Source: a virus. From it: a stretch of DNA of 42,096 nucleotides. The position numbers and the translations under genes are program-made. The notes beneath the pieces are model-generated. The model made no database searches, was not told the origin of the DNA, and saw only the letters and a program-made list of their open reading frames with translations. Location: positions 1-42,096 of the IMG/VR virus record IMGVR_UViG_3300045988_168302. The stretch is one strand, 5' to 3'. Each line of letters begins with the position of its first letter. Position 1 is the first letter of the stretch. Shown here one piece after another: positions 25,257 to 42,096 of this stretch.

Positions 25257-25289
25257 AAAAAAAGACTACCTTATTTGGTAGTCTTTTTT
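25257..25289. terminator. Bidirectional terminator at the 3' end of the minus-strand gene.
   Basis: aaaaaagactacc-ttattt-ggtagtctttttt. The stop codon of the minus gene lies in the loop. Confidence 0.75.
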
Positions 25290-26824
25290 ACTCTAGTACA
25301 CCCACATGATTTACTATAACCATTAATTACATAAGATTTATTGAATTCCTTTATATTGCCACAATCACATTTACAGACAACTCTATTTTTACCTAGTTCT
25401 TTTATAATGGTGAGATGATTAAATTTTTGCCCTGTTCTATCTATAATACTTTTTGTTTTCCTCAAACATCCGCATGATTTTGTATGACCGTTAATAACGT
25501 TGTTTTTTGCTGTTTCAATGATATTCCCACAATCGCAACGACAACGAACTTTTGTTGTATTATATCCTTTAGAGTCTTTTACGTAAAATTCTTCTAATAC
25601 AGTAAGGGAATTAAATTTTTTACCTATTATATTTTCTGTAATGCGTTTTATTTTTATGGTTTTATAAGGGCAGTTTTTATCACCACAATATTTTTTTTCC
25701 TCTAAAATCACATCTTGTTTTTTAGCTTCAACAATGTTGCCACAATCACAACGGCAAATAACTTTTGTCTTATAACCACCATTTTCCTTTATAATGGTGA
25801 GGTGATTAAATTTTTTACCTATATAAGATTTAATTTTAGGGCCTCTAGTTATGCATCCACAAGATTTTGTGTTGCCACTAACTATTGTTGATTTTTTTAA
25901 TATTTTTACGTTTCCACAATCACATTTACAAAGAACTTTATCGCCGCCTAGCTCTTCTAATATAGTGAGCATGTTAAATTTCTTACCTACATAAGATTTA
26001 CGAACTTGTGTTTTTTTATTAGCAAAATAGTTTCTTATAATAGGAAGGAAATATTTCTTTTCTGCTTCTTTTCGAGCTTTAATGGCTTCTTCTTTAGTAT
26101 CAAATTTCCCTAAAGAAATTAAAGTATTACTGATACCAATTTTAGCCTCCCATTTATTCAATTTAGGGCGGAAAAATACTCCGTTTATTCCGCTTTTATT
26201 ATTTTTAGCAAGCTTCCTATTGCTTATAAGCTTTATATTAGTACAACGTATACTAAATTTTTTTAAACCATTATGCATTTTATCTGTTCTGGATTTATTA
26301 GCGCATAAATTACATGAGGTGGATTTATGATGTGTTAAATTTGCTGTTAAAACTATTGTTGTATTACCACAACTACATTTGCATAACCATTTTACTGGCT
26401 TATTTTGTATTTTTTTTATAACTGTAAGATTGCCAAAAACTTTTCCTGTTAAATCAATAAAGTTCGGATTTTCTTTAGAAATACATCCACAGTCTTTTAT
26501 TGAACCATTAATCACACGGTCTTTTCTTAAAATTTTTTCATTGCCACAATCACAACGGCAAAGAATTTTGTTTTCTCCAAGTTCTTTAATAATGGTAAGA
26601 TGATTGAATTTTTCTCCTTCTTTATTATCGATTTTGTATTGTCCACTATTAATAAATTCATAACGTTTGCACCCACAGGATTTTGTTTTTCCTGTTTTAA
26701 CTTTATATTTATCGTATTCCTTAACTGTTCCACAATCACAGCGACAAATAATTCTATTATTACCTAATTCTTTTATAACTGTAAGATAGTTAAATTTCTG
26801 TCCTGTTAAATCTATAAATTTCAA
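25271..26824 (-). CDS. Protein of about eight tandem Cys-rich modules ([F]xxLTVIKELGxNKxxCxCDCGNxK...GxTKSCGC) around a central AP2/ERF-type DNA-binding domain.
   Basis: The AP2 consensus SGINGVFFRPKLNKWEAKIGI..SLGKFDTKEEAIKARKEA lies at about 26050..26210. TTG start at 26824 has a perfect SD aaggagtg 6 nt upstream. The in-frame ATG at 26878 has no SD. Confidence 0.65.
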   Translation of the reverse strand: MKFIDLTGQKFNYLTVIKELGNNRIICRCDCGTVKEYDKYKVKTGKTKSCGCKRYEFINSGQYKIDNKEGEKFNHLTIIKELGENKILCRCDCGNEKILRKDRVINGSIKDCGCISKENPNFIDLTGKVFGNLTVIKKIQNKPVKWLCKCSCGNTTIVLTANLTHHKSTSCNLCANKSRTDKMHNGLKKFSIRCTNIKLISNRKLAKNNKSGINGVFFRPKLNKWEAKIGISNTLISLGKFDTKEEAIKARKEAEKKYFLPIIRNYFANKKTQVRKSYVGKKFNMLTILEELGGDKVLCKCDCGNVKILKKSTIVSGNTKSCGCITRGPKIKSYIGKKFNHLTIIKENGGYKTKVICRCDCGNIVEAKKQDVILEEKKYCGDKNCPYKTIKIKRITENIIGKKFNSLTVLEEFYVKDSKGYNTTKVRCRCDCGNIIETAKNNVINGHTKSCGCLRKTKSIIDRTGQKFNHLTIIKELGKNRVVCKCDCGNIKEFNKSYVINGYSKSCGCTRVKKTTK

Positions 26825-26904
26825 ATTACTCACTCCTTGATAGATAATCAAAGATAAGCTATAATATTTACAGCTCATCTGATTAATAGAAACATTAGAT
26901 GTAA

Positions 26905-26941
26905 GGGCATTTACTAGGGCATTAGTAAATGCTCTTTTTTT
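26905..26941 (+). terminator. Hairpin gcatttacta-gggcat-tagtaaatgc followed by a T-run, with the conserved loop AGGGCATT.
   Basis: 10-bp perfect stem followed by tcttttttt. Confidence 0.6.
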
Positions 26942-27079
26942 ATTATATCACTTTATTTACCTAAATAATACTATAAAAATAATATAAAATCAATATAATT
27001 ATAGAATATAATAATTATAAAAATGATATAAAAACACTTAAATAAAAGAAAAAGCCGATATTTTGATATCGACTTTAGT

Positions 27080-27108
27080 TTGACAATATATTTAATTTAA
27101 TATATTAT
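27080..27108 (+). promoter_or_regulatory. Sigma70-like promoter, TTGACA-17-TATTAT, pointing into the noncoding structured region.
   Basis: Perfect -35 and near-consensus -10 with 17-nt spacing. No ORF lies downstream before 28010. Confidence 0.5.
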
Positions 27109-27112
27109 AAAG

Positions 27113-27630
27113 GTGTAAATAATTTGACAATTTAATAAAAAGTTTTTAGAAATAAAAAAGACCAAACGTGTTACCAGCACGATTGGTCTTGCCGAACAAC
27201 CTACCACTAATAAGTTGTCCGAGTAAATTTCTAAACTCATTATAGGCAATTTTAAACGATATGTCAACGATATATCGCAAATTTTAATGATTTTAGGTAG
27301 GAATAGTAGGCACATTTACATTTTTCCCATGTGGGAATGATGATAAATGTGTTTTTTTAGTATCTAAAATCAGGTATGGGAATAAACCATATCAGCGTGC
27401 CATGATGCTTATTCATGGAAAGCGAGAGCTACACTTGGCAAGGTGTATAAACTAGGATTGCAGAAAGTAATCCACTGTATCGTCAGCAGAGGCAGGGAAA
27501 TCGGCGGGGCATTTGGATATATTCTACTATCCAAATTTACCTAAGAGGGCGGAATGTCGTTAAACTCCCTTAATAAGCCTAACCTATTATATAAATTGCA
27601 AATCAGAGCCGTTTTAAGGCTCTTTTTTTA
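27113..27630 (+). ncRNA. Candidate structured noncoding RNA of about 0.5 kb, promoter-driven and terminated at 27603..27630. Its class is unknown.
   Basis: No plausible ORF. GC content is well above the genome background. Multiple hairpins (27160..27195, 27524..27549). Terminator agagcc-gttttaa-ggctct-ttttttt. Confidence 0.35.
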
Positions 27631-28009
27631 TGCGGTTAATATAATTGTATGGTTAAAAGTAGACGACGGTGGTTAAAGCAATTTTAGATTGCAGATTGGG
27701 ATTGCAGATTTTATCTGTAAGCCGTATTAGGATAACATGTGGAAACGCATGGCGGTTGGGGCAATGAGGTAACCGTTAAAAATCCTACCTGTGTAAAAGC
27801 AGGGACTAGTAGAAAGCTGGACTGGACGCAAGAAAACCAGGCGAAAAAAAATATAGTTATATCTTTAGTAAACTGCTAAAGGTATAACTATATCTAGAAC
27901 ACGGTTCCGCAATCCTCCCAAGCGTAATCTTTTTTGAGTTAGAAGTAAAGCCAAAGTTAGTGCCTAGTTTAAATAAATTTATATACACCAATAGAAAGAA
28001 GGTGAGTAG

Positions 28010-28198
28010 ATGCCAACGATAAAAGAAATAAAAGCTATAGCAAAAGATAGAGCTGTAGTACTACCAAAGAAAGCAAAAAAAGCAGATATGATACATATAT
28101 TGCAGAAGCAAGAGGGAAATAATCCTTGTTATGCAACTAAACAATGTAATATAGATGTGTGCCTTTGGTATAAGGATTGCCAAAAGGCAATAAAATAA
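28010..28198 (+). CDS. Small protein with a Rho_N/SAP-like N-terminus and a Cys-rich tail.
   Basis: IKEIKAIAKDRAVVLPKKAKKADMIHIL fits the Rho_N pattern. RBS gaaggtg. Confidence 0.4.
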   Translation: MPTIKEIKAIAKDRAVVLPKKAKKADMIHILQKQEGNNPCYATKQCNIDVCLWYKDCQKAIK

Positions 28199-28286: not shown

Positions 28287-28673
28287 TCATGAATTTTGGA
28301 CGTCGTTCATCACGACTTGAAGAATAAAATTATTTACACTTCGGTCTTGTTTTTGAGCTTCTTCTTTTACCTTGATATATAAATCCATATCAAGATTTAA
28401 ACATATTTTACCTTGTGGTTTAAATAGTTTTTCTACATCATTAAGCTCATTGTACATATTCTTTTTTAAAGTCTGTTTGATGTATCCTGTTACTGTTCTG
28501 CCTACGCTAGTAGCTTTATCTTTTAGACGAGTTTTTATTTCTTCTGTAACATAGAGAAATACTGTTTTTTTAGTATTTCTTGTAGGTGTTGGTATTGGTT
28601 TTTCAATTTTATCTTCGATCGGTTTTTTTTCTGTGAAAAATTCCGATGCTACAGTGAATTTTTTATTTGCCAT
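28287..28673 (-). CDS. Tandem ribbon-helix-helix protein, a likely ParG/CopG-like centromere-binding partner of ParA.
   Basis: Two beta-strand plus helix-helix units (KKTVFLYVTEEIKTRLKDKATSVGRTVTGYIKQTL and KICLNLDMDLYIKVKEEAQKQDRSVNNFILQVV). It overlaps the end of parA by 11 nt. Confidence 0.5.
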   Translation of the reverse strand: MANKKFTVASEFFTEKKPIEDKIEKPIPTPTRNTKKTVFLYVTEEIKTRLKDKATSVGRTVTGYIKQTLKKNMYNELNDVEKLFKPQGKICLNLDMDLYIKVKEEAQKQDRSVNNFILQVVMNDVQNS

Positions 28674-29379
28674 AATTTATTACCTCGTTAACGAAACTTT
28701 TATAATCTCGACCAGCATTACTATATTTTGCATAGTCGAAAATATTTTGTTTTAAATTTTGAGCTTCTGGAATAGCTACACATTCTCTTATTTGAGTATC
28801 AAAAACTCTTGTTCCATAATCAACTGTTTTTGATTTTAGCTCTTCTAATATATTTTGGGCTATTATAGTTCTAGCTTTAAATCTAGTTAGAAGAACACCC
28901 ATTATTTTTACTTGCACCTTTTGTATTTTTTCTATCAAGATATTTATACCCTGTGCAGAAAAAGTATCTGCGTGGGCAGTGATGATTATATAATCACTGG
29001 CACATAAAGCATTAATTGTAGTAATGCCTAGTGCTGGAGCTGTATCAATAATGATGTAGTCATATTTATCTTTTATGGGCATGAGTAAATCGTGCAAGAT
29101 AAATTCATATCCTGCACCACCTTGAATTTTTACAATATCAGGCGAGCCAGCAATCATATCGTTTTTGATACACTGATCTACAGCTGTTTCTTCTGTGAGC
29201 ATATCGAAAATATTATACTTATTATTCATGCAATTTTCTGCATTAGATAAATTGCATTGTGAATCTAGGTCAATTAGCAAGACTTTCTTTTTATAAAATT
29301 TTCTAAGTCCTGCTGCTAGGTTTTGGGCAGTAGTAGTTTTACCAACTCCGCCTTTTTGGTTTACAATACTAATTATCAT
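28663..29379 (-). CDS. parA: ParA/Soj-family partition ATPase.
   Basis: Deviant Walker A motif IVNQKGGVGKTTTAQNLA. 238 aa. RBS ggtgg. Confidence 0.85.
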   Translation of the reverse strand: MIISIVNQKGGVGKTTTAQNLAAGLRKFYKKKVLLIDLDSQCNLSNAENCMNNKYNIFDMLTEETAVDQCIKNDMIAGSPDIVKIQGGAGYEFILHDLLMPIKDKYDYIIIDTAPALGITTINALCASDYIIITAHADTFSAQGINILIEKIQKVQVKIMGVLLTRFKARTIIAQNILEELKSKTVDYGTRVFDTQIRECVAIPEAQNLKQNIFDYAKYSNAGRDYKSFVNEVINYGK

Positions 29380-29509: not shown

Positions 29510-29863
29510 TTAAAGTTCATCAACAGCTGTAATTTTTACTTCAAAATGATTTTCTAATAATTCGTCAAATAAATCTGAACCATCAATTTCATCATTGTAA
29601 TACTTTTCTACGATTGATTTAGCTTTTGCTTCATCTTCTTTATTTACAAAAACAAATTCAATCATTATATCATATGCTTCGTCTTCTTCTTTATCATAAA
29701 ATGTGAATGATGGATTTTTATCTTCTACTAAGTTTCCACCATCTTCATAATCGAAAATAGATTTTCCACCGAGTTTTACCATTTCAGTATCAATTGCAAA
29801 TAAATCAATTGTTTCACCTAATAATTTTTTTGCTTCGTTAATAGTTTCTTGTTTGCTCATCAT
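29510..29863 (-). CDS. Acidic small protein, paralog A of a pair. Candidate DNA-mimic, anti-defence or immunity protein (speculative).
   Basis: 117 aa, very D/E-rich. The N-terminus MMSKQETINEAKKLLG is shared with 30045..30386. It has its own promoter and terminator. Confidence 0.6.
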   Translation of the reverse strand: MMSKQETINEAKKLLGETIDLFAIDTEMVKLGGKSIFDYEDGGNLVEDKNPSFTFYDKEEDEAYDIMIEFVFVNKEDEAKAKSIVEKYYNDEIDGSDLFDELLENHFEVKITAVDEL

Positions 29864-29916
29864 GATTAATTACCTCTTTTTATTATTTATTTCTTGTAGT
29901 TCCTTACTACACTTAT

Positions 29917-29945
29917 ATAATACCATATAAATAATATAATGTCAA
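29917..29945 (-). promoter_or_regulatory. Sigma70 promoter, TTGACA-17-TATTAT, for acidic gene A.
   Basis: Minus-strand reading gives ttgaca ttatattatttatatgg tattat. It is duplicated at 30439..30467. Confidence 0.65.
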
Positions 29946-30007
29946 CATAAAAATAATATAAAAATACCATAAAAATAATATAATTAAGATATAAATAGAT
30001 AAAAAAG

Positions 30008-30046
30008 AAGGCATCACCAAGGGCATTTGGCGATACCTTACTTTTT
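30008..30046 (-). terminator. Minus-strand terminator. The 12-bp stem is perfect only on the minus-strand RNA (two G-U pairs). Loop AATGCCCT.
   Basis: aaggcatcacca-agggcatt-tggcgatacctt. The plus strand has C-A mismatches. A T-run follows on the minus strand. Confidence 0.6.
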
Positions 30047-30386
30047 AAAGTTCTTCGATATTTGTAATTTCAATCGTAGTTTTACGTGCTTCTTCTTCTA
30101 ATTCCCATTCTTCTAATTCATCATTTATATATTTTTCATTACATTCTTTAGCATTGCCACTTATTATTTTATAAGTAACACCAAGATAAAAAACTTCATC
30201 TTCATTATCTACAAAAGTCCAACAAGGTTGTTCGTCATTGATGAATTCGCTTACGCTTAATTCATCAAAAATTGAACCAGCACCAAGTTTTACCATTTCA
30301 TTATCCAAGTCTGTATAACCGAATAATTGAAATTGTTTCCCAATTAAATTTTTTGCTTCGTTAATAGTTTTTTCTTTGCTCATCAT
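30045..30386 (-). CDS. Acidic small protein, paralog B.
   Basis: 113 aa. The N-terminus MMSKEKTINEAKNLIG matches paralog A. The upstream ~110 bp are near-identical to the region upstream of paralog A. Confidence 0.6.
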   Translation of the reverse strand: MMSKEKTINEAKNLIGKQFQLFGYTDLDNEMVKLGAGSIFDELSVSEFINDEQPCWTFVDNEDEVFYLGVTYKIISGNAKECNEKYINDELEEWELEEEARKTTIEITNIEEL

Positions 30387-30438
30387 GATTAATTCCTCAT
30401 TTCATTTATTTTTTTATGTAGTTCCTTACTACACTTAT

Positions 30439-30467
30439 ATAATACCATATAAATAATATAATGTCAA
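30439..30467 (-). promoter_or_regulatory. Sigma70 promoter, TTGACA-17-TATTAT, for acidic gene B.
   Basis: Duplicate of the promoter at 29917..29945. Confidence 0.65.
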
Positions 30468-30611
30468 TAGAAAAATAATATAAAAATACCATAAAAATAA
30501 TATAAATTTAAAATAAAACACAATATATAGTGGTTTTTGCAAACTCAATCAAAGTCAGTCAAAAATCTTGGAAAATCCATTTGGAGAATACATATTTTTG
30601 GCAAAATAAAA

Positions 30612-31564: not shown

Positions 31565-31598
31565 GAAAAGACCACCATTAATGGTGGTCTTTTTTTAT
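31565..31598. terminator. Bidirectional terminator.
   Basis: aaaag-agaccacc-attaat-ggtggtct-ttttttt. Confidence 0.75.
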
Positions 31599-32086
31599 GC
31601 TCTGTTTTCTATGGTATCGTCGATAATATTTGTAGTAGTGGAAGCTGTATATTCGTTTTTTCCCTCTGCTACTTTTAATTCATTGGCTACCTGATTAAGC
31701 TTTTCGTCGTAAGTTTTTTCTTCATCAGAAGGACTTACCATAGCTTTTAAAATAGAAACAAAATTTTTACGCTGAATTTTAGGAAGATTTATATAGCTTT
31801 TTATAATTGATAATTCATCTTCATCTAAATCGAATTCTTTTACTAGGTCATTTATAATATTTTTTTCTGTAGTTTGATAAACTTCACCAGTACCATTTAA
31901 TATCCATTCTTTATTAATAGAATAAATATCACAAATATGATTTATTAATAGTTCTTTTGGCTCAACTCGATTTAGTTCAATATTTGCTATTACGTATTTA
32001 CCTACCCCCAAACGTTCACCAAATTCTTCTTGGTTTAAATTTTTTTCTTTACGAATAAACTTTATTCTTTCTTGTATAGTTTTCAA
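31595..32086 (-). CDS. XRE-family HTH repressor, CI-like, with a C-terminal oligomerisation or sensor domain. TTG start.
   Basis: The HTH is NLNQEEFGERLGVGKYVIANIELNRVEP. SD gaggtg 5 nt before TTG 32086. It is divergent from the early operon across palindromic operators. Confidence 0.7.
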   Translation of the reverse strand: MKTIQERIKFIRKEKNLNQEEFGERLGVGKYVIANIELNRVEPKELLINHICDIYSINKEWILNGTGEVYQTTEKNIINDLVKEFDLDEDELSIIKSYINLPKIQRKNFVSILKAMVSPSDEEKTYDEKLNQVANELKVAEGKNEYTASTTTNIIDDTIENRA

Positions 32087-32822: not shown

Positions 32823-32926
32823 AGAAAATGAAAATCCGCATCAGAAAATCATTATCGACCAAGTGTCGGTAAAAATCATTTTTGATGATGTATTTATACC
32901 AATTGTAGAAGTTAATAAGCTTTAAA
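32771..32926 (+). CDS. Small ORF of 51 aa.
   Basis: RBS aaaggagag 6 nt before ATG. Confidence 0.35.
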
Positions 32927-32962
32927 AGAATAGAAAAGTAAAATCTTTATCAGGTCTTTTTT

Positions 32963-32993
32963 AAAAGGGGTTCTCGCCCCTTTTATGACTTGA
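32963..32993 (+). promoter_or_regulatory. GC hairpin (aaaaGGGG-ttctcg-CCCCtttt) followed by CTTGATA. Terminator and/or double-strand origin nick site for the adjacent Rep.
   Basis: The only GGGG/CCCC stem in the region. CTTG/ATA at 32987..32993 matches the nick motif of pC194/phiX-type rolling-circle origins. It is 80 nt upstream of rep. Confidence 0.45.
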
Positions 32994-33075
32994 TAAAGAT
33001 ATTATTTTAATAATCATGCAGTACATATTTATATAAATAAAAATACATAAAAAATAAAAGAAAGGAGTAAGCAAT

Positions 33076-33978
33076 ATGTCTTATGTTAAGAAACAGACAA
33101 GTATAAATAATGATAATATCTTGGAGATATATTACACCAAGAAATTACCTGTAAAGAATAATATAAGAAGCCCAAAAATGGGACTTACTCCTTTGGCACA
33201 AGAAGAAGTGAATAACAAGAATTCTATAAATTTGTTAAGGCTTCTTATTTTAAATAATTTTGGTGATGGGGATTTATTTCTATCTCTAACTTATAAAGAT
33301 AAGAAAGAGGAAAATAAAAAAGAACCGACACCAGAAGAAGCGAAAAAGCATTTGGCTAATTTTAGACAGAAGTTAATTCGTTTCTATAAAAAGAAAAATG
33401 CTGTAGTGAAGTATATATTTTGTACGGAATGTACTTCAAAACAGCAAAGAATACATCACCATTTGCTTTTAAAAGTTGAAGGTTGTGATGTAAATCCAAC
33501 AGATATAAAAAATCTTTGGGGACATGGTTTCGTATCTGTAAAAATCTATGGCGGACAAATAACAGATGCCGAAGACCTCGCAAATTACATGGTGAAGAAA
33601 AAGAGAAATGCTTTCTTCACTGCTCCAGGAGTATTCAAAAAAAGGTATAACGCTAGTAAAAACTTGGAAAAACCGCAAGTTACTAGCGTTATTGTGCGTA
33701 GGAAATATTGGCTAAGAGAACCAAGAATTCCGAAAGGATATATGCTGGACAAAAACAGTCTTATAAATGGTATTTATACATTTGGTAATGGAGAAAGCGA
33801 TTATGAATACCAATTTTATAGATTAATCAAGATTGATAAACCTGCAAGGCGAATAAACTTGCAGGAAAAAGTGAAAGCTAAAAGAGTTAAAAAAGAAATC
33901 TACTTTACACATAATCTAAACAAAATAGATTTCTTAATAAAATACAAAAAGCCTAGAGCCGAAAGCAATACGAGCTAA
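33076..33978 (+). CDS. rep: Rolling-circle replication initiator (HUH endonuclease Rep).
   Basis: Motif 1 FLSLTYKD at ~33274. Motif 2 IHHHLLLKV (HUH) at 33455..33463. Motif 3 LANYMVKKK with the catalytic Tyr at 33586. Confidence 0.7.
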   Translation: MSYVKKQTSINNDNILEIYYTKKLPVKNNIRSPKMGLTPLAQEEVNNKNSINLLRLLILNNFGDGDLFLSLTYKDKKEENKKEPTPEEAKKHLANFRQKLIRFYKKKNAVVKYIFCTECTSKQQRIHHHLLLKVEGCDVNPTDIKNLWGHGFVSVKIYGGQITDAEDLANYMVKKKRNAFFTAPGVFKKRYNASKNLEKPQVTSVIVRRKYWLREPRIPKGYMLDKNSLINGIYTFGNGESDYEYQFYRLIKIDKPARRINLQEKVKAKRVKKEIYFTHNLNKIDFLIKYKKPRAESNTS

Positions 33979-34028: not shown

Positions 34029-34436
34029 ATGGAAGTAAAAGTAAATGAAAGTGATAAGAAAGTATCTTGGCAGGGAAGAGTTAGAATTGTGTCTTGCAAA
34101 AATTGTGGAAAAGTTTTTGAAACACGATACCTGAATAAACTTTATTGCTGTATGGAATGTAGAAATGAATATACAGCAAAGAGAAAAAAGAAAAAACTTG
34201 AAGAAGAAAAAAACAAGAAGCCAAAGATAAAAAGAATGGATATAGTTTCTGCTATAGCTAAAGTAACAGGCTTAAGTTTTGGTGTGGTGAGTGAACTATA
34301 TCCAAATGTAGAAAAAATATTGGCTAAAGCAAAATATGAACAAAGCATTGGTAGAGCTAAGCCAATAAAAATAGACGATTACAGAAAAATAAATATATCA
34401 AGTGAGCATACAGCGTGCTTCTTATTGGGGTGTTGA
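34029..34436 (+). CDS. Zinc-ribbon protein with a basic tail (CKNCG..CCMEC), a possible small transcription factor.
   Basis: C-x2-C-x13-CC-x2-C followed by a K-rich segment. RBS gaggtg 6 nt before ATG 34029. Confidence 0.5.
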   Translation: MEVKVNESDKKVSWQGRVRIVSCKNCGKVFETRYLNKLYCCMECRNEYTAKRKKKKLEEEKNKKPKIKRMDIVSAIAKVTGLSFGVVSELYPNVEKILAKAKYEQSIGRAKPIKIDDYRKINISSEHTACFLLGC

Positions 34437-34437
34437 T

Positions 34438-35409
34438 ATGAAGAAAATATTATTAATTGATATTGATAGCCATAATTTCCCCAATTTATCGCTGATGAAG
34501 TTATCGGCATTTCTTAAACAAAATGATAGTGATATTGATTTCATAAAACTTACAAAAGCTGATAAAACTGCAATACTTAATGGTCAGCCAATGTGGTTTG
34601 ATAATGAATACGACAGTATATATGGTGCTTGTGTTTTTACAGACAATAGAAATGTAGCGATTAAACTTCATGATATGGGCGTGATGATAGGTGGAACAGG
34701 TGTCAGTGATATTGATGATAAAAATATCATTAAAAAATTAGAACCTGAAATAGAACATATATATCCAGATTATAAGCTATACAATAATGAGTTTAAAAAT
34801 ATAGCATATGGTTTTCTTACTCGTGGTTGTCCTCGTAGTTGCCCTTTCTGTATAGTTAGCGGAAAAGAAGGAAATAAATCAATCAAAGTGGCTGATTTAT
34901 ATGAGTTTTATGAAGACCAATCTATTATAAAGTTATTGGATCCAAATATACTTGCGTGTGATGAACATATTAATCTACTAGAACAATTAGTAGATAGTAA
35001 AGCATGGATAGATTTTACACAAGGCTTAGATGCAAGATGTACAAATTTGAGCAATCTAAAACTTATTCAACAAATGAAGATAAAGATGATACATTTTGCA
35101 TGGGATAATCCTAGAACAGAAAAAATGAAAGATTATCTATATTTCATTAGGCAAAACTTAAATTATCGACCAGAAAAAATGAGAGTTTATGTACTCACTA
35201 ATTACTGGAGTAATTTTGATGATGATTTAAACAGGGTTTATTGGCTTAGAGATAATGGATTTGAACCTTACGTAATGATATACGATAAACCAAATGCTCC
35301 AAAGAATGTAAAAAAGTTACAACGATATGTAAATTGTAAATACATTTTTAAAAGTATTGATAGATTTGAAGATTATTATTCAGGTAACTGGAAATACAAA
35401 AAGGAGTGA
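34438..35409 (+). CDS. Radical SAM enzyme, probably of the cobalamin-binding type.
   Basis: GFLTRGCPRSCPFC carries the CxxxCxxC motif in the RGCPxxCxFC form typical of B12-rSAM enzymes. An N-terminal Rossmann-like domain of ~130 aa precedes it. Confidence 0.55.
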   Translation: MKKILLIDIDSHNFPNLSLMKLSAFLKQNDSDIDFIKLTKADKTAILNGQPMWFDNEYDSIYGACVFTDNRNVAIKLHDMGVMIGGTGVSDIDDKNIIKKLEPEIEHIYPDYKLYNNEFKNIAYGFLTRGCPRSCPFCIVSGKEGNKSIKVADLYEFYEDQSIIKLLDPNILACDEHINLLEQLVDSKAWIDFTQGLDARCTNLSNLKLIQQMKIKMIHFAWDNPRTEKMKDYLYFIRQNLNYRPEKMRVYVLTNYWSNFDDDLNRVYWLRDNGFEPYVMIYDKPNAPKNVKKLQRYVNCKYIFKSIDRFEDYYSGNWKYKKE

Positions 35410-37392: not shown

Positions 37393-37414
37393 TTTTTATA
37401 TCTAGGAGGTGTTT

Positions 37415-37885
37415 ATGCCAGCAACAAAATCTTTATATAAATATCAATTTTTCGATAAAAATATAAAGATTAAAAATAAGTCTGATAAAAATAAATGGCT
37501 AAATGAATATATATTGTGTGGCTCTGTAACAGACACCTGCAAAAAAAGAAATATATCTCGTACTACCTTCTATGATTGGCTCAAAAATGATGAAGTATTT
37601 AGAAAAGCATATAAAGAAGAAGCTAAACCAATGATTACATCACTACTCGAAGATGAAGCATATAGAAGGGCAGTAGTAGGAGTTAATAAAAGTGTTTTTT
37701 ATAGGGGTACAAAGGTAGCAACAATGAAAGTTTATAGTGATTCACTATTGCAGTTATTGTTGCAAGCTAACTGCCCAGAAAAATATAAGCAAGTTGTAGA
37801 TAGCACTGTTAAGACAGATATAACAGTAAAATCTGAAAACTTAACAGACGCTTTGGCGGAAAGGATAAGAAAAGCAGATGAATGA
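37415..37885 (+). CDS. terS: Terminase small subunit-like protein with an HTH.
   Basis: SRTTFYDWLKNDEVFRKAY is an HTH. It sits immediately upstream of the large terminase and overlaps it. RBS taggagg 5 nt before ATG 37415. Confidence 0.55.
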   Translation: MPATKSLYKYQFFDKNIKIKNKSDKNKWLNEYILCGSVTDTCKKRNISRTTFYDWLKNDEVFRKAYKEEAKPMITSLLEDEAYRRAVVGVNKSVFYRGTKVATMKVYSDSLLQLLLQANCPEKYKQVVDSTVKTDITVKSENLTDALAERIRKADE

Positions 37886-39338
37886 TTTTGAGATAAAAAC
37901 AAAAGATGATTTGAATTCTGCTTTGGATTTTTTGGCACATTTTACAAATGATCCAGTAGGATTTGTAAAAGCAGCGTTTGATTGGGAACATGATCCAACG
38001 CTAGAAGGAAAATCTCCGCAACAATGGCAACTTGATATATTGCAGGATATAAAAGATAACTTACTCACTACACAGACAGCTATAAGAATAGCAGTATCTA
38101 GTGGTCATGGTATCGGTAAATCTGCTTTGGTAGCATGGATAATCTTATGGTCCATAACTACCTATCCAGATAGTAGGGCAGTAGTTACAGCAAATACAGA
38201 TAGCCAGTTAAAATCTAAAACTTGGCCAGAAGTTCAAAAGTGGTTTAATAAATTTATTTTAAAAGATTTATTTATCTGCACGGCTACTACACTTACTACA
38301 AAGGAAATTGCTCATCAGAAAACATGGCAGGCAAATGCTATACCATGGAGCAAAGAAAACTCCGAAGCTTTCGCAGGTCTACACAATCAAGGGAAAAGAA
38401 TTACTCTCATTTTTGATGAAGGCTCAGCGATTGAAGACATTATCTATGAAGTAGCAGAAGGTGCTTTGACAGATAAAGACACACAGATTATCTGGTGTGT
38501 TTTTGGAAATCCTACAAGAAATACAGGAAGGTTTTTTGAATGTTTCCATAAGCATAGAAATCTTTGGAAATGTAGGCAAATAGATAGCCGAACTGTAGAT
38601 ATATCCAATAAAGAACAGCTTCAGCAGTGGGTTGATACCTACGGAGAAGATAGCGACTTTGTCAGAGTCCGTGTACGAGGTGTTTTTCCTAGTGCTAGTG
38701 AATATCAGTTTATACCTAGAAAAATCGTTGATGAAGCAAGTGAAAGAAAAATACTTGAACAGCAAGTATCATTTGCACCTGTGATAATAGGGGTTGATCC
38801 TGCATGGACTGGCGGAGATACAACAGATATTTATTTAAGACAGGGGCTATATTGCAAACTGCTAGGCGAATATCAAAAAAATGATGATGATATGCGAATG
38901 GCTAATATTATAGCTAAGTTTGAAGATGAGTATAAAGCTGATGCCGTAAATATAGATTTTGGCTATGGTACTGGTATCTATAGTGCAGGTCTTAGCATGG
39001 GCAGAAGGTGGAACTTAATCAAGTTTGGTTCTAAAGCGAATAAGAAAGGATTTGCTAATAAACGTGCAGAGATATGGGGAGAAACAAAACAGTGGTTAAT
39101 AGATGGCGGTGCTATCGAAGATGACCAACAGCTAAAAGATGATTTAACGTCCCCAGAATACACGATAAATAATAAAGGCGAAATCTTACTTGAAAGTAAA
39201 GAGTCCATGAAAAAAAGAGGATTGGCTTCACCAAACAGGGCAGACGCATTAGCACTTACATTTGCAATTAATGTTGTCAAGAAAAGCCAAAGAGTAACAA
39301 AATGCAATACAGATTATGATCCATTTGCAGACTTTTAA
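37878..39338 (+). CDS. terL: Terminase large subunit.
   Basis: Walker A motif SSGHGIGKSALV. 486 aa, with an ATPase domain followed by a nuclease domain. Confidence 0.8.
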   Translation: MNDFEIKTKDDLNSALDFLAHFTNDPVGFVKAAFDWEHDPTLEGKSPQQWQLDILQDIKDNLLTTQTAIRIAVSSGHGIGKSALVAWIILWSITTYPDSRAVVTANTDSQLKSKTWPEVQKWFNKFILKDLFICTATTLTTKEIAHQKTWQANAIPWSKENSEAFAGLHNQGKRITLIFDEGSAIEDIIYEVAEGALTDKDTQIIWCVFGNPTRNTGRFFECFHKHRNLWKCRQIDSRTVDISNKEQLQQWVDTYGEDSDFVRVRVRGVFPSASEYQFIPRKIVDEASERKILEQQVSFAPVIIGVDPAWTGGDTTDIYLRQGLYCKLLGEYQKNDDDMRMANIIAKFEDEYKADAVNIDFGYGTGIYSAGLSMGRRWNLIKFGSKANKKGFANKRAEIWGETKQWLIDGGAIEDDQQLKDDLTSPEYTINNKGEILLESKESMKKRGLASPNRADALALTFAINVVKKSQRVTKCNTDYDPFADF

Positions 39339-41960: not shown

Positions 41961-42096
41961 ATGCAAAACTATATCAGTGTGAAAATGGTAAAAGCTGAAC
42001 CTTGCAAAGCATGGAAAGACTTCAAAGGTCATAAAGAAGGTGATGAAGGATATAAAATTTATTATCCTGATGGTTATGTATCTTGGTGTCCTAAAG
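41961..42096 (+). CDS. 5' part of the wrap-around ORF that continues at 3..659.
   Basis: RBS agagggg. The frame runs open to the window end. It is in frame with 3..659 across the duplicated 54 nt. Confidence 0.5.
   Translation, partial: MQNYISVKMVKAEPCKAWKDFKGHKEGDEGYKIYYPDGYVSWCPK

Follow-up and report, generated by a model that had tools for sequence, protein, structure and literature searches.

Phage phiX174, one of the closest described systems to the locus reported here, is cut near the 5' end of a 30-bp origin that lies inside gene A, whose product (513 aa) carries two active-site tyrosines; the origin of phage P2, a precedent for an HUH initiator that replicates the double-stranded DNA (dsDNA) genome of a tailed phage, lies inside its own gene A, which encodes a Rep of a different family. 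In the plasmid systems of the pC194/pUB110 type, CTTGATA is the conserved nick site of the Rep_1 family (PMC10378824), the family origin is CTT(G)TTCTTTCTTATCTTGATA (PMC5031790), and the catalytic triad Tyr214, Glu142, and Glu210 is universally conserved (PMC5703833). HUH Reps are also known in Myoviridae, tailed dsDNA phages (PMC6668415). We analyzed a stretch of viral DNA of 42,096 nt (IMG/VR record IMGVR_UViG_3300045988_168302, positions 1 to 42,096; the whole stretch is called the window below) that encodes a replication initiator (Rep) and, upstream of it, a GC-cored hairpin followed by CTTGATA, which a preliminary description made from the letters alone had proposed to be the double-strand origin. 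Our comparison of related loci makes it likely that the noncoding stretch of about 90 bp at 32928-33020 is the double-strand origin of the Rep encoded directly downstream.

The case for this origin is carried by comparative evidence, because the heptamer alone occurs at chance level: the two strands of the window hold 14 copies of CTTGATA (8 on the plus strand) against 9.3 +/- 2.9 expected, and by itself it carries no weight. The preliminary description was right to treat a further copy near position 2250 as a chance occurrence, although it counted two copies where there are 14. We fetched the genomic contexts of relatives through the Rep protein only, with a search run from an alignment of the 9 closest Reps, and then inspected the sequence preceding each rep gene. 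In 12 of the 13 lineages found in this way, with Rep identities across lineages of about 25-63%, a stable hairpin, a spacer of 3-8 nt, and CTTG-N8-ATTA follow one another on the rep coding strand (Table 1), and the DNA flanking this block is unalignable between lineages. The hairpin is found at the same place in 21 of 21 loci tested, always more stable than shuffled sequences (z from -1.9 to -6.9), and at least 13 different stems occur among these loci, each with its own complement: AAGGGCT/AGCCCTT, AAGGGAG/CTCCCTT, ACGGCCT/AGGCCGT, ATGGGATGCG/CGCATCCCAT, GCAAACCCGC/GCGGGTTTGC, and AAAAGTCA/TGGCTTTT are examples. MAFFT and RNAalifold gave no consensus structure for the origin segments, in which hairpin offsets and loops vary, and the stems were tabulated sequence by sequence instead of by consensus folding.

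Anchored on CTTG, 18 nonredundant loci yield the footprint aCTTGaTAaAG.TATTAa..Tta.ga, in which the columns of CTTG, A+12, and T+14 stand at 100% and the flanks are unconserved. Its weakly conserved 3' extension (60-83% per column at offsets +19 to +27) corresponds to 33005-33020 in the window, a candidate region that Rep may bind. We also scanned IMG/VR for ACTTGATAAAGNNATTA, which returned at least 120 stretches, most of them presumably chance matches; among the matches listed, 9 carry the gene for a distant member of the Rep family (clade 2; 110-134 bits to the family profile), and all 9 have a GC hairpin before the motif and rep directly downstream on the same strand. The double-strand-origin reading, which had first been argued from position alone, is thus backed by 12 of 13 protein-found lineages and by 9 motif-found loci. 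In the 9 motif-found loci the start codon of rep lies 25-35 nt past the motif; the distance of the motif from the ATG in the lineages L013 and L014 and in clade 2 is 35-44 nt.

In the window itself, GGGG-N3-12-CCCC has one occurrence in all 42,096 bases, and the hairpin that had been described as the sole one in its area is therefore unique across the whole stretch. CTTGATA, on the same strand as rep, follows the hairpin as described, not immediately but after 4 nt (ATGA), and the 80 nt previously given as its distance from the gene are those counted between it and the ATG. The 20-mer that contains it occurs only once in the window; the next best match is a minus-strand site at 32939 with 3 mismatches. 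This site belongs to an imperfect inverted repeat (79% complementary) that encloses the GC hairpin and carries CTTGATA in its right arm; the left arm, in its minus-strand reading AAGACCTGATAAAGATTTTA, repeats the motif in inverted and degenerate form, with 3 mismatches to the 20-mer. Folded as single-stranded DNA, 32930-33075 reaches -20.2 kcal/mol (z = -5.2; none of 200 shuffles was equally stable), and the 35 nt upstream of CTTG reach -8.1 kcal/mol (z = -6.8). An inverted motif copy is also present in L007, an inverted CTTGA core in L003 and L006, and inverted TCAAG/CTTGA copies flank the hairpin in 7 of the 9 clade-2 loci; these inverted copies suggest Rep-dimer recognition or cruciform extrusion. 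We considered and rejected a 3-bp CTT/AAG mini-stem around GATA as a loop presenting the nick site: a full 7-bp hairpin is formed in L005 and L009 only. The GC skew of the window tracks gene orientation and gives no origin signal.

Comparison with L001, whose Rep is 98% identical, points to the boundaries of the element. Nucleotide identity between the two sets in abruptly at about 32928 and extends to about 34180, about 1,100 nt past the ATG on the right, and its left end coincides with that of the inverted repeat. On this alignment origin and rep move as a unit, and palindrome, hairpin, motif, and rep behave as one exchangeable module with its left edge at 32928.

Table 1. Features of the origin and rep region (positions in the window) and lineages that share the hairpin, spacer, and CTTG-N8-ATTA layout
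Feature	Position	Strand	Remarks
Left arm of 29-nt imperfect inverted repeat	32928-32956		Repeat search; right arm 32987-33015
Hairpin AAAAGGGG(32963-32970)-TTCTCG-CCCCTTTT(32977-32984)	32963-32984	+	GC-cored; proposed structural/recognition element of double-strand origin
Origin motif, 20-mer ATGACTTGATAAAGATATTA	32985-33004	+	Conserved; CTTGATA at 32989-32995
Second invariant block, ATTA	33001-33004	+	Footprint over 18 loci
Weakly conserved 3' footprint extension TTTTAATAATCATGCA	33005-33020	+	Family pattern ..Tta.ga..a
rep ribosome-binding site AAAGGAG	33061-33067	+	8 nt before ATG; read from sequence
rep gene, predicted 300-aa HUH rolling-circle initiator	33076-33978	+	ORF list, Pfam, PHROGs, alignment, fold
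Motif I, FLSLTY	33277-33294	+	Residues 68-73 of Rep
HHH (H127-H129)	33454-33462	+	Within IHHHLLL, Rep residues 126-132
Codon of predicted catalytic Y171	33586-33588	+	Within LANYMVKK, Rep residues 168-175
Lineage: window clade			The query itself
Lineage: L003/L008			Rep identity 57%
Lineage: L005/L009			Rep identity 47%; L005 = Megamonas metagenome-assembled genome (MAG)
Lineage: L006			Rep identity 63%
Lineage: L007			Rep identity 56%
Lineage: L010			Rep identity 39%
Lineage: L012			Rep identity 33%
Lineage: L013			Rep identity 32%
Lineage: L014			Butyrivibrio phage Idris; Rep identity 30%
Lineage: L135			C. perfringens plasmid; Rep identity 30%
Lineage: L139			Rep identity 38%
Lineage: L140			Rep identity about 28%

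The open reading frame (ORF) downstream of the motif is predicted, from its motifs, family matches, and modeled fold, to encode the phage's rolling-circle initiator, an HUH endonuclease with Y171 as its single active-site tyrosine. The three rolling-circle motifs named in the preliminary description (FLSLTYKD, HHHLLL, and NYMVKKK) are all present where it placed them, within DLFLSLTYKD (residues 66-75), RIHHHLLLK (125-133), and LANYMVKKK (168-176). Across an alignment of 21 homologues with identities down to 24%, N61, F62, D66, K112, H127, H129, Y171, and S194 are invariant, L71, T72, Y73, E118, and K174 are nearly so, and motif III has a single tyrosine. The presence of the three motifs together with the invariance of H127, H129, and Y171 places Rep in the HUH superfamily. 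Residues 67-175 match positions 2-98 of the 99 in the Pfam profile PF23343 (REP_ORF2-G2P, "Replication-associated protein ORF2/G2P"; 4.1e-17, 62.7 bits against a cut-off of 27.8), and in PHROGs the protein falls into phrog_3584, "replication initiation protein" (8.7e-47); it has no model in NCBIfam, and a search of the PDB with its sequence found no match. For the AlphaFold model (pLDDT 75.6), the specific PDB fold matches are all HUH nucleases, with weak E-values: SIRV1 ORF119 (2x3g; E = 1.8e-3, probability 1.00) and, further, the Reps of AAV, parvovirus, and circovirus, and Helitron. A fold search against viral models put the "ORF2/G2P" Reps of uncultured siphoviruses first (1.4e-20) and replication initiators of Microviridae second (about 1e-7). 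The family of PF23343 and PHROG 3584 comprises 1,486 clusters (50% identity) at E <= 1e-3 and 503 at E <= 1e-10; its members are mostly labeled "hypothetical protein" in GenBank and RefSeq, and the cluster members are nameless.

Of the families suggested at the outset for comparison, Rep belongs to neither Rep_1 (16.7 bits against a cut-off of 33.2) nor the phiX gene A type; it falls in PF23343. The preliminary description had named a family with a different nick consensus as the finding that would count against its proposal, and because we know of no established different nick consensus for PF23343, this assignment leaves the proposal standing. Rep nevertheless shares its HUH architecture with the initiators of pC194 and pUB110, as well as motif I, the HUH motif, and a tyrosine motif of the form YxxK, and the loci have in common that CTTGATA precedes rep on the gene's coding strand, with a hairpin a few nucleotides 5' of the heptamer. 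In the pC194 record, repA is preceded at about 200 nt by a CTTGATA on its own strand, and the hairpin AAAGGATTT..AAATCCTTT stands 10 nt before that heptamer. The phiX174 record has its rep_origin annotated at A4306, inside CCCCCAACTTG/ATATTAATAAC, and ACTTGATA is identical at this annotated origin, so that the parallel drawn earlier with pC194 and with CAACTTG/ATA of phiX holds on the records as well as in the literature (PMC10378824, PMC5031790). When 8 phage origins are aligned with those of pC194 and phiX174, CTTG and TA are invariant.

The likeness has limits on both sides. The equivalent of pC194 Glu142 is kept as E118, whereas that of Glu210, four residues before the tyrosine, is replaced by D167 and variable among homologues, so that Rep retains two positions of the Rep_1 triad, Y171 and E118, and lacks the third. 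A direct comparison with pC194 RepA by hhalign (E = 0.0027, probability 11%) brings only the motifs into register, and in profile comparisons with pC194 RepA and phiX174 A the conserved Glu falls into line together with motif I and HUH, at weak significance (E about 0.003, probability about 10%); the Phage_GPA profile has no match to Rep at E <= 1. The replicons differ as well, a 42-kb phage genome here and a plasmid of <10 kb for pC194/pUB110. As for phiX174, conserved or recognized DNA extends 3' of the cut in both systems, whereas the origin here is intergenic and upstream of rep, and phiX A with its two active-site tyrosines resembles our single-tyrosine Rep in sequence at the level of motifs only.

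Within tailed phages and phage-plasmids, the Butyrivibrio phages Arawn and Idris and 38-kb phage-plasmids of Clostridium perfringens (NZ_CP102306 is an example), all of them cultured elements, carry a homologue of Rep (30% identity) in the early operon, with the same hairpin and CTTG..ATTAAC upstream of it. Replication is not a topic of the paper that describes Arawn and Idris. Besides Rep, the C. perfringens elements have genes for ParM and for a distinct "plasmid replication protein," of which the window has no homologue; the presence of two initiators there suggests, by analogy, that the HUH Rep may serve lytic replication. NZ_CP102306 is a complete siphovirus-like phage-plasmid in which the HUH Rep is annotated as hypothetical. 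In L135/L138 (NZ_CP102306), two copies of TACTAGATATTAAC precede the gene of the Rep homologue (L135 3805-3835 and 3921-3941), one lying in an upstream terminator-like palindrome and one at the origin.

If 32928-33020 is the double-strand origin, Rep would be made from the early rightward operon that adjoins the repressor switch. On negatively supercoiled DNA it would recognize three elements: the GC hairpin, the inverted repeat on either side of it, and the conserved block ACTTGATAAAGATATTA. It would cut the plus strand, most likely between G32992 and A32993 (CTTG/ATA) by analogy with pC194 and phiX174, and Y171 would become linked to the 5' phosphate. The 3'-OH would prime a host polymerase while a host helicase unwinds the duplex, and synthesis would run rightwards through rep toward the packaging genes, continued rolling yielding concatemers for the terminase (37409-39338). 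The position of the nick, the strand that is cut, the host factors, and the service in lytic replication are what we infer from the layout and the related systems.

Several observations weigh against this reading and, in particular, against the position of the nick. Rep scores below the Rep_1 threshold, and its likeness to pC194 RepA and phiX A is confined to motifs. Conservation is found 3' of CTTG here, whereas in pC194/pUB110 the conserved stretch is 5' of the nick (PMC5031790). In the footprint, the position directly after the proposed nick is variable (A in 78%, otherwise T or G), the 5' flank of the nick is unconserved, and the TATTA block is conserved at least as well as CTTG; these percentages are somewhat inflated, since 6 of the 18 loci were found through the motif itself, and the protein-found loci alone give the same pattern. 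The 13th protein-found lineage, L011 (Rep identity 37%), keeps the hairpin and ATTAAC (2870-2940), but where the CTTG block ACTTGATAAAG would stand it has TCCTTTAAACC, a variant that may represent a switch of origin specificity. Finally, AGTATTAAC in Idris and L139 resembles TAGTATTAC, the CRESS-virus nonanucleotide, and the T-run after the hairpin together with the TTGATA hexamer would also be compatible with a terminator and, after it, a -35 box.

Some of these points would be accounted for by a cut in or next to TATTA (about 33000-33005) within the same origin, CTTG and the hairpin then being binding determinants 5' of the nick, a geometry typical of relaxases and CRESS-virus Reps. TATTA (+11 to +15) is 89-100% conserved on both sides, as against the varying base after CTTG, and conservation 3' of CTTG would suit enzymes whose recognition covers about 7-14 nt on the 5' side of the cut. 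We nevertheless think this unlikely: TATTA lies outside the hairpin loop, unlike the nonamers of CRESS viruses; microvirus Reps are the closest structural relatives of Rep outside tailed phages; and phiX174, with its cut near the 5' end of the origin, has the very geometry proposed here. Of the related systems, moreover, the two that have been studied best are both established to be nicked at CTTGATA (PMC10378824).

A cut at CTTG/ATA within a double-strand origin also has to be set against the view that the locus is transcription punctuation only, the hairpin terminating the upstream small-ORF operon, TTGATA serving as -35 box of the rep promoter or as an operator for Rep or a repressor, and the origin lying elsewhere, possibly within rep itself, like those of phiX174 and P2 in their initiator genes. 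A4 and T4 tracts border the stem in the manner of a bidirectional terminator, the stem begins 38 nt past the stop codon (at 32925), and in the window the TTTT after the stem pairs with the AAAA upstream; the terminator scan, however, did not list the hairpin. In L010 and L012 it has no T-run, and L003, L005, L007, L010, L011, and L013 have a separate terminator farther upstream, and for these reasons we take the hairpin to be more than a terminator. TTGATA equals TTGACA at 5 of 6 positions, there are weak promoter-like sites at 32985-33014 and 32990-33017 (9/12), and the Rep-coated double-strand origin of pUB110 overlaps the rep promoter (PMC5703833). Against this, the conserved stretch is one contiguous block of 16 nt rather than two hexamers, the motif is so close to the ATG in L013, L014, and clade 2 that there is no usable -10, and no -10 hexamer is conserved at 16-18 nt, which leads us to reject a promoter as the main explanation of TTGATA. 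Punctuation as the sole role is thus very improbable, and any transcriptional role of hairpin and motif would be secondary; the hairpin may also terminate the small-ORF transcript.

The genome around the origin probably belongs to a phage-plasmid. An exact 54-nt direct repeat at 1-54 and 42043-42096 indicates a circular, complete assembly of about 42,042 bp with 32% GC, and the window contains portal and terminase genes. A ParA-like partition ATPase (phrog_164, 4.5e-52) followed by an Arc/ParG-like small protein is encoded at 28287-29379 (minus strand), and a divergent helix-turn-helix (HTH) repressor at 31595-32086. No integrase was found among the ORFs searched, which are not all of the window's ORFs. 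Beside rep, ParA/ParB are also encoded in L007, L008, L010, and L140. PHROG and Pfam scans of the ORFs neighboring rep, again a part of those in the window, recognized no second replication initiator. That the HUH Rep is the sole initiator, and that the plasmid-prophage state is also kept by rolling circle from the palindromic origin, strikes us as improbable. If true, it would make the element a stably partitioned rolling-circle replicon several times the size of a classical rolling-circle plasmid, in which the inverted motif copy on the other strand might act in control or in second-strand initiation.

Several further sequence elements were observed. In seven clade-2 loci (L095, L132, L019, L103, L071, L059, and L098), AAAGTCAAGAAAA is conserved 5' of the origin hairpin; it holds an inverted CTTGA core or, on the opposite strand, a TTGACT -35 box, and L108 has the element in the opposite orientation. 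Repeats with an 11-nt phase, ATAAAAATA(A/C)(T/C)AT, occur in the window at 26962-27050, 29913-30002, 30435-30517, and 33037-33049, among them upstream of two paralogous small genes on the minus strand (29510-29863 and 30045-30386), whose 123-nt upstream regions are 89% identical, and with one unit directly before the ribosome-binding site of rep. They look like operator, iteron, or centromere arrays, and possibly link expression of rep to the same regulator.

A segment of 1.1 kb without ORF (26880-28010) has a GC content above that of its surroundings and contains consensus promoters at 27080-27108 (plus strand) and 27267-27239 (minus strand) and terminator-like hairpins, for example at 27605-27623 followed by T7. 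It could hold one or more noncoding RNAs or a plasmid-maintenance origin. Rfam at the gathering threshold, with the E-value mode applied to 26900-28050, gave nothing above threshold, the best hit being rli36-like (27847-27929; 31 vs 50 bits), and a tRNA scan gave nothing useful. Next to it, 25271-26878 (minus strand) encodes a 535-aa protein with about eight repeats of G(K/Q)KFNxLT(V/I)IKELG..K..C(R/K)CDCGN...SCGC around an AP2/HNH-like core (phrog_374, 1.6e-108), by its sequence a putative, unusually repetitive HNH endonuclease of zinc-ribbon-like character. Two genes downstream of rep, 34402-35409 (plus strand) encodes a radical-SAM protein (phrog_9298, 1.1e-81); in the whole window, this stretch alone resembles a deposited phage at the nucleotide level (Clostridium phage phiCT453B, 69%).

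The Rep family itself is already in Pfam and PHROGs, and HUH initiators in tailed phages are established (PMC6668415); our literature search found no description of a PF23343-family origin in tailed phages. The current understanding of rolling-circle replication is unchanged by the locus described here, which amounts to an ordinary but well-supported annotation. For a large Rep family with poor annotation, common among the phages and phage-plasmids that Firmicutes of the gut and rumen carry, it provides a concrete candidate origin made up of hairpin, spacer (3-8 nt), and CTTG-N8-ATTA, and it opens the question of how a rolling-circle initiator near the microvirus Reps serves tailed-phage genomes of 30-42 kb. 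The motif may help to locate replication origins when genomes of this kind are annotated, and may serve in the design of minimal replicons for Clostridia that are hard to engineer.

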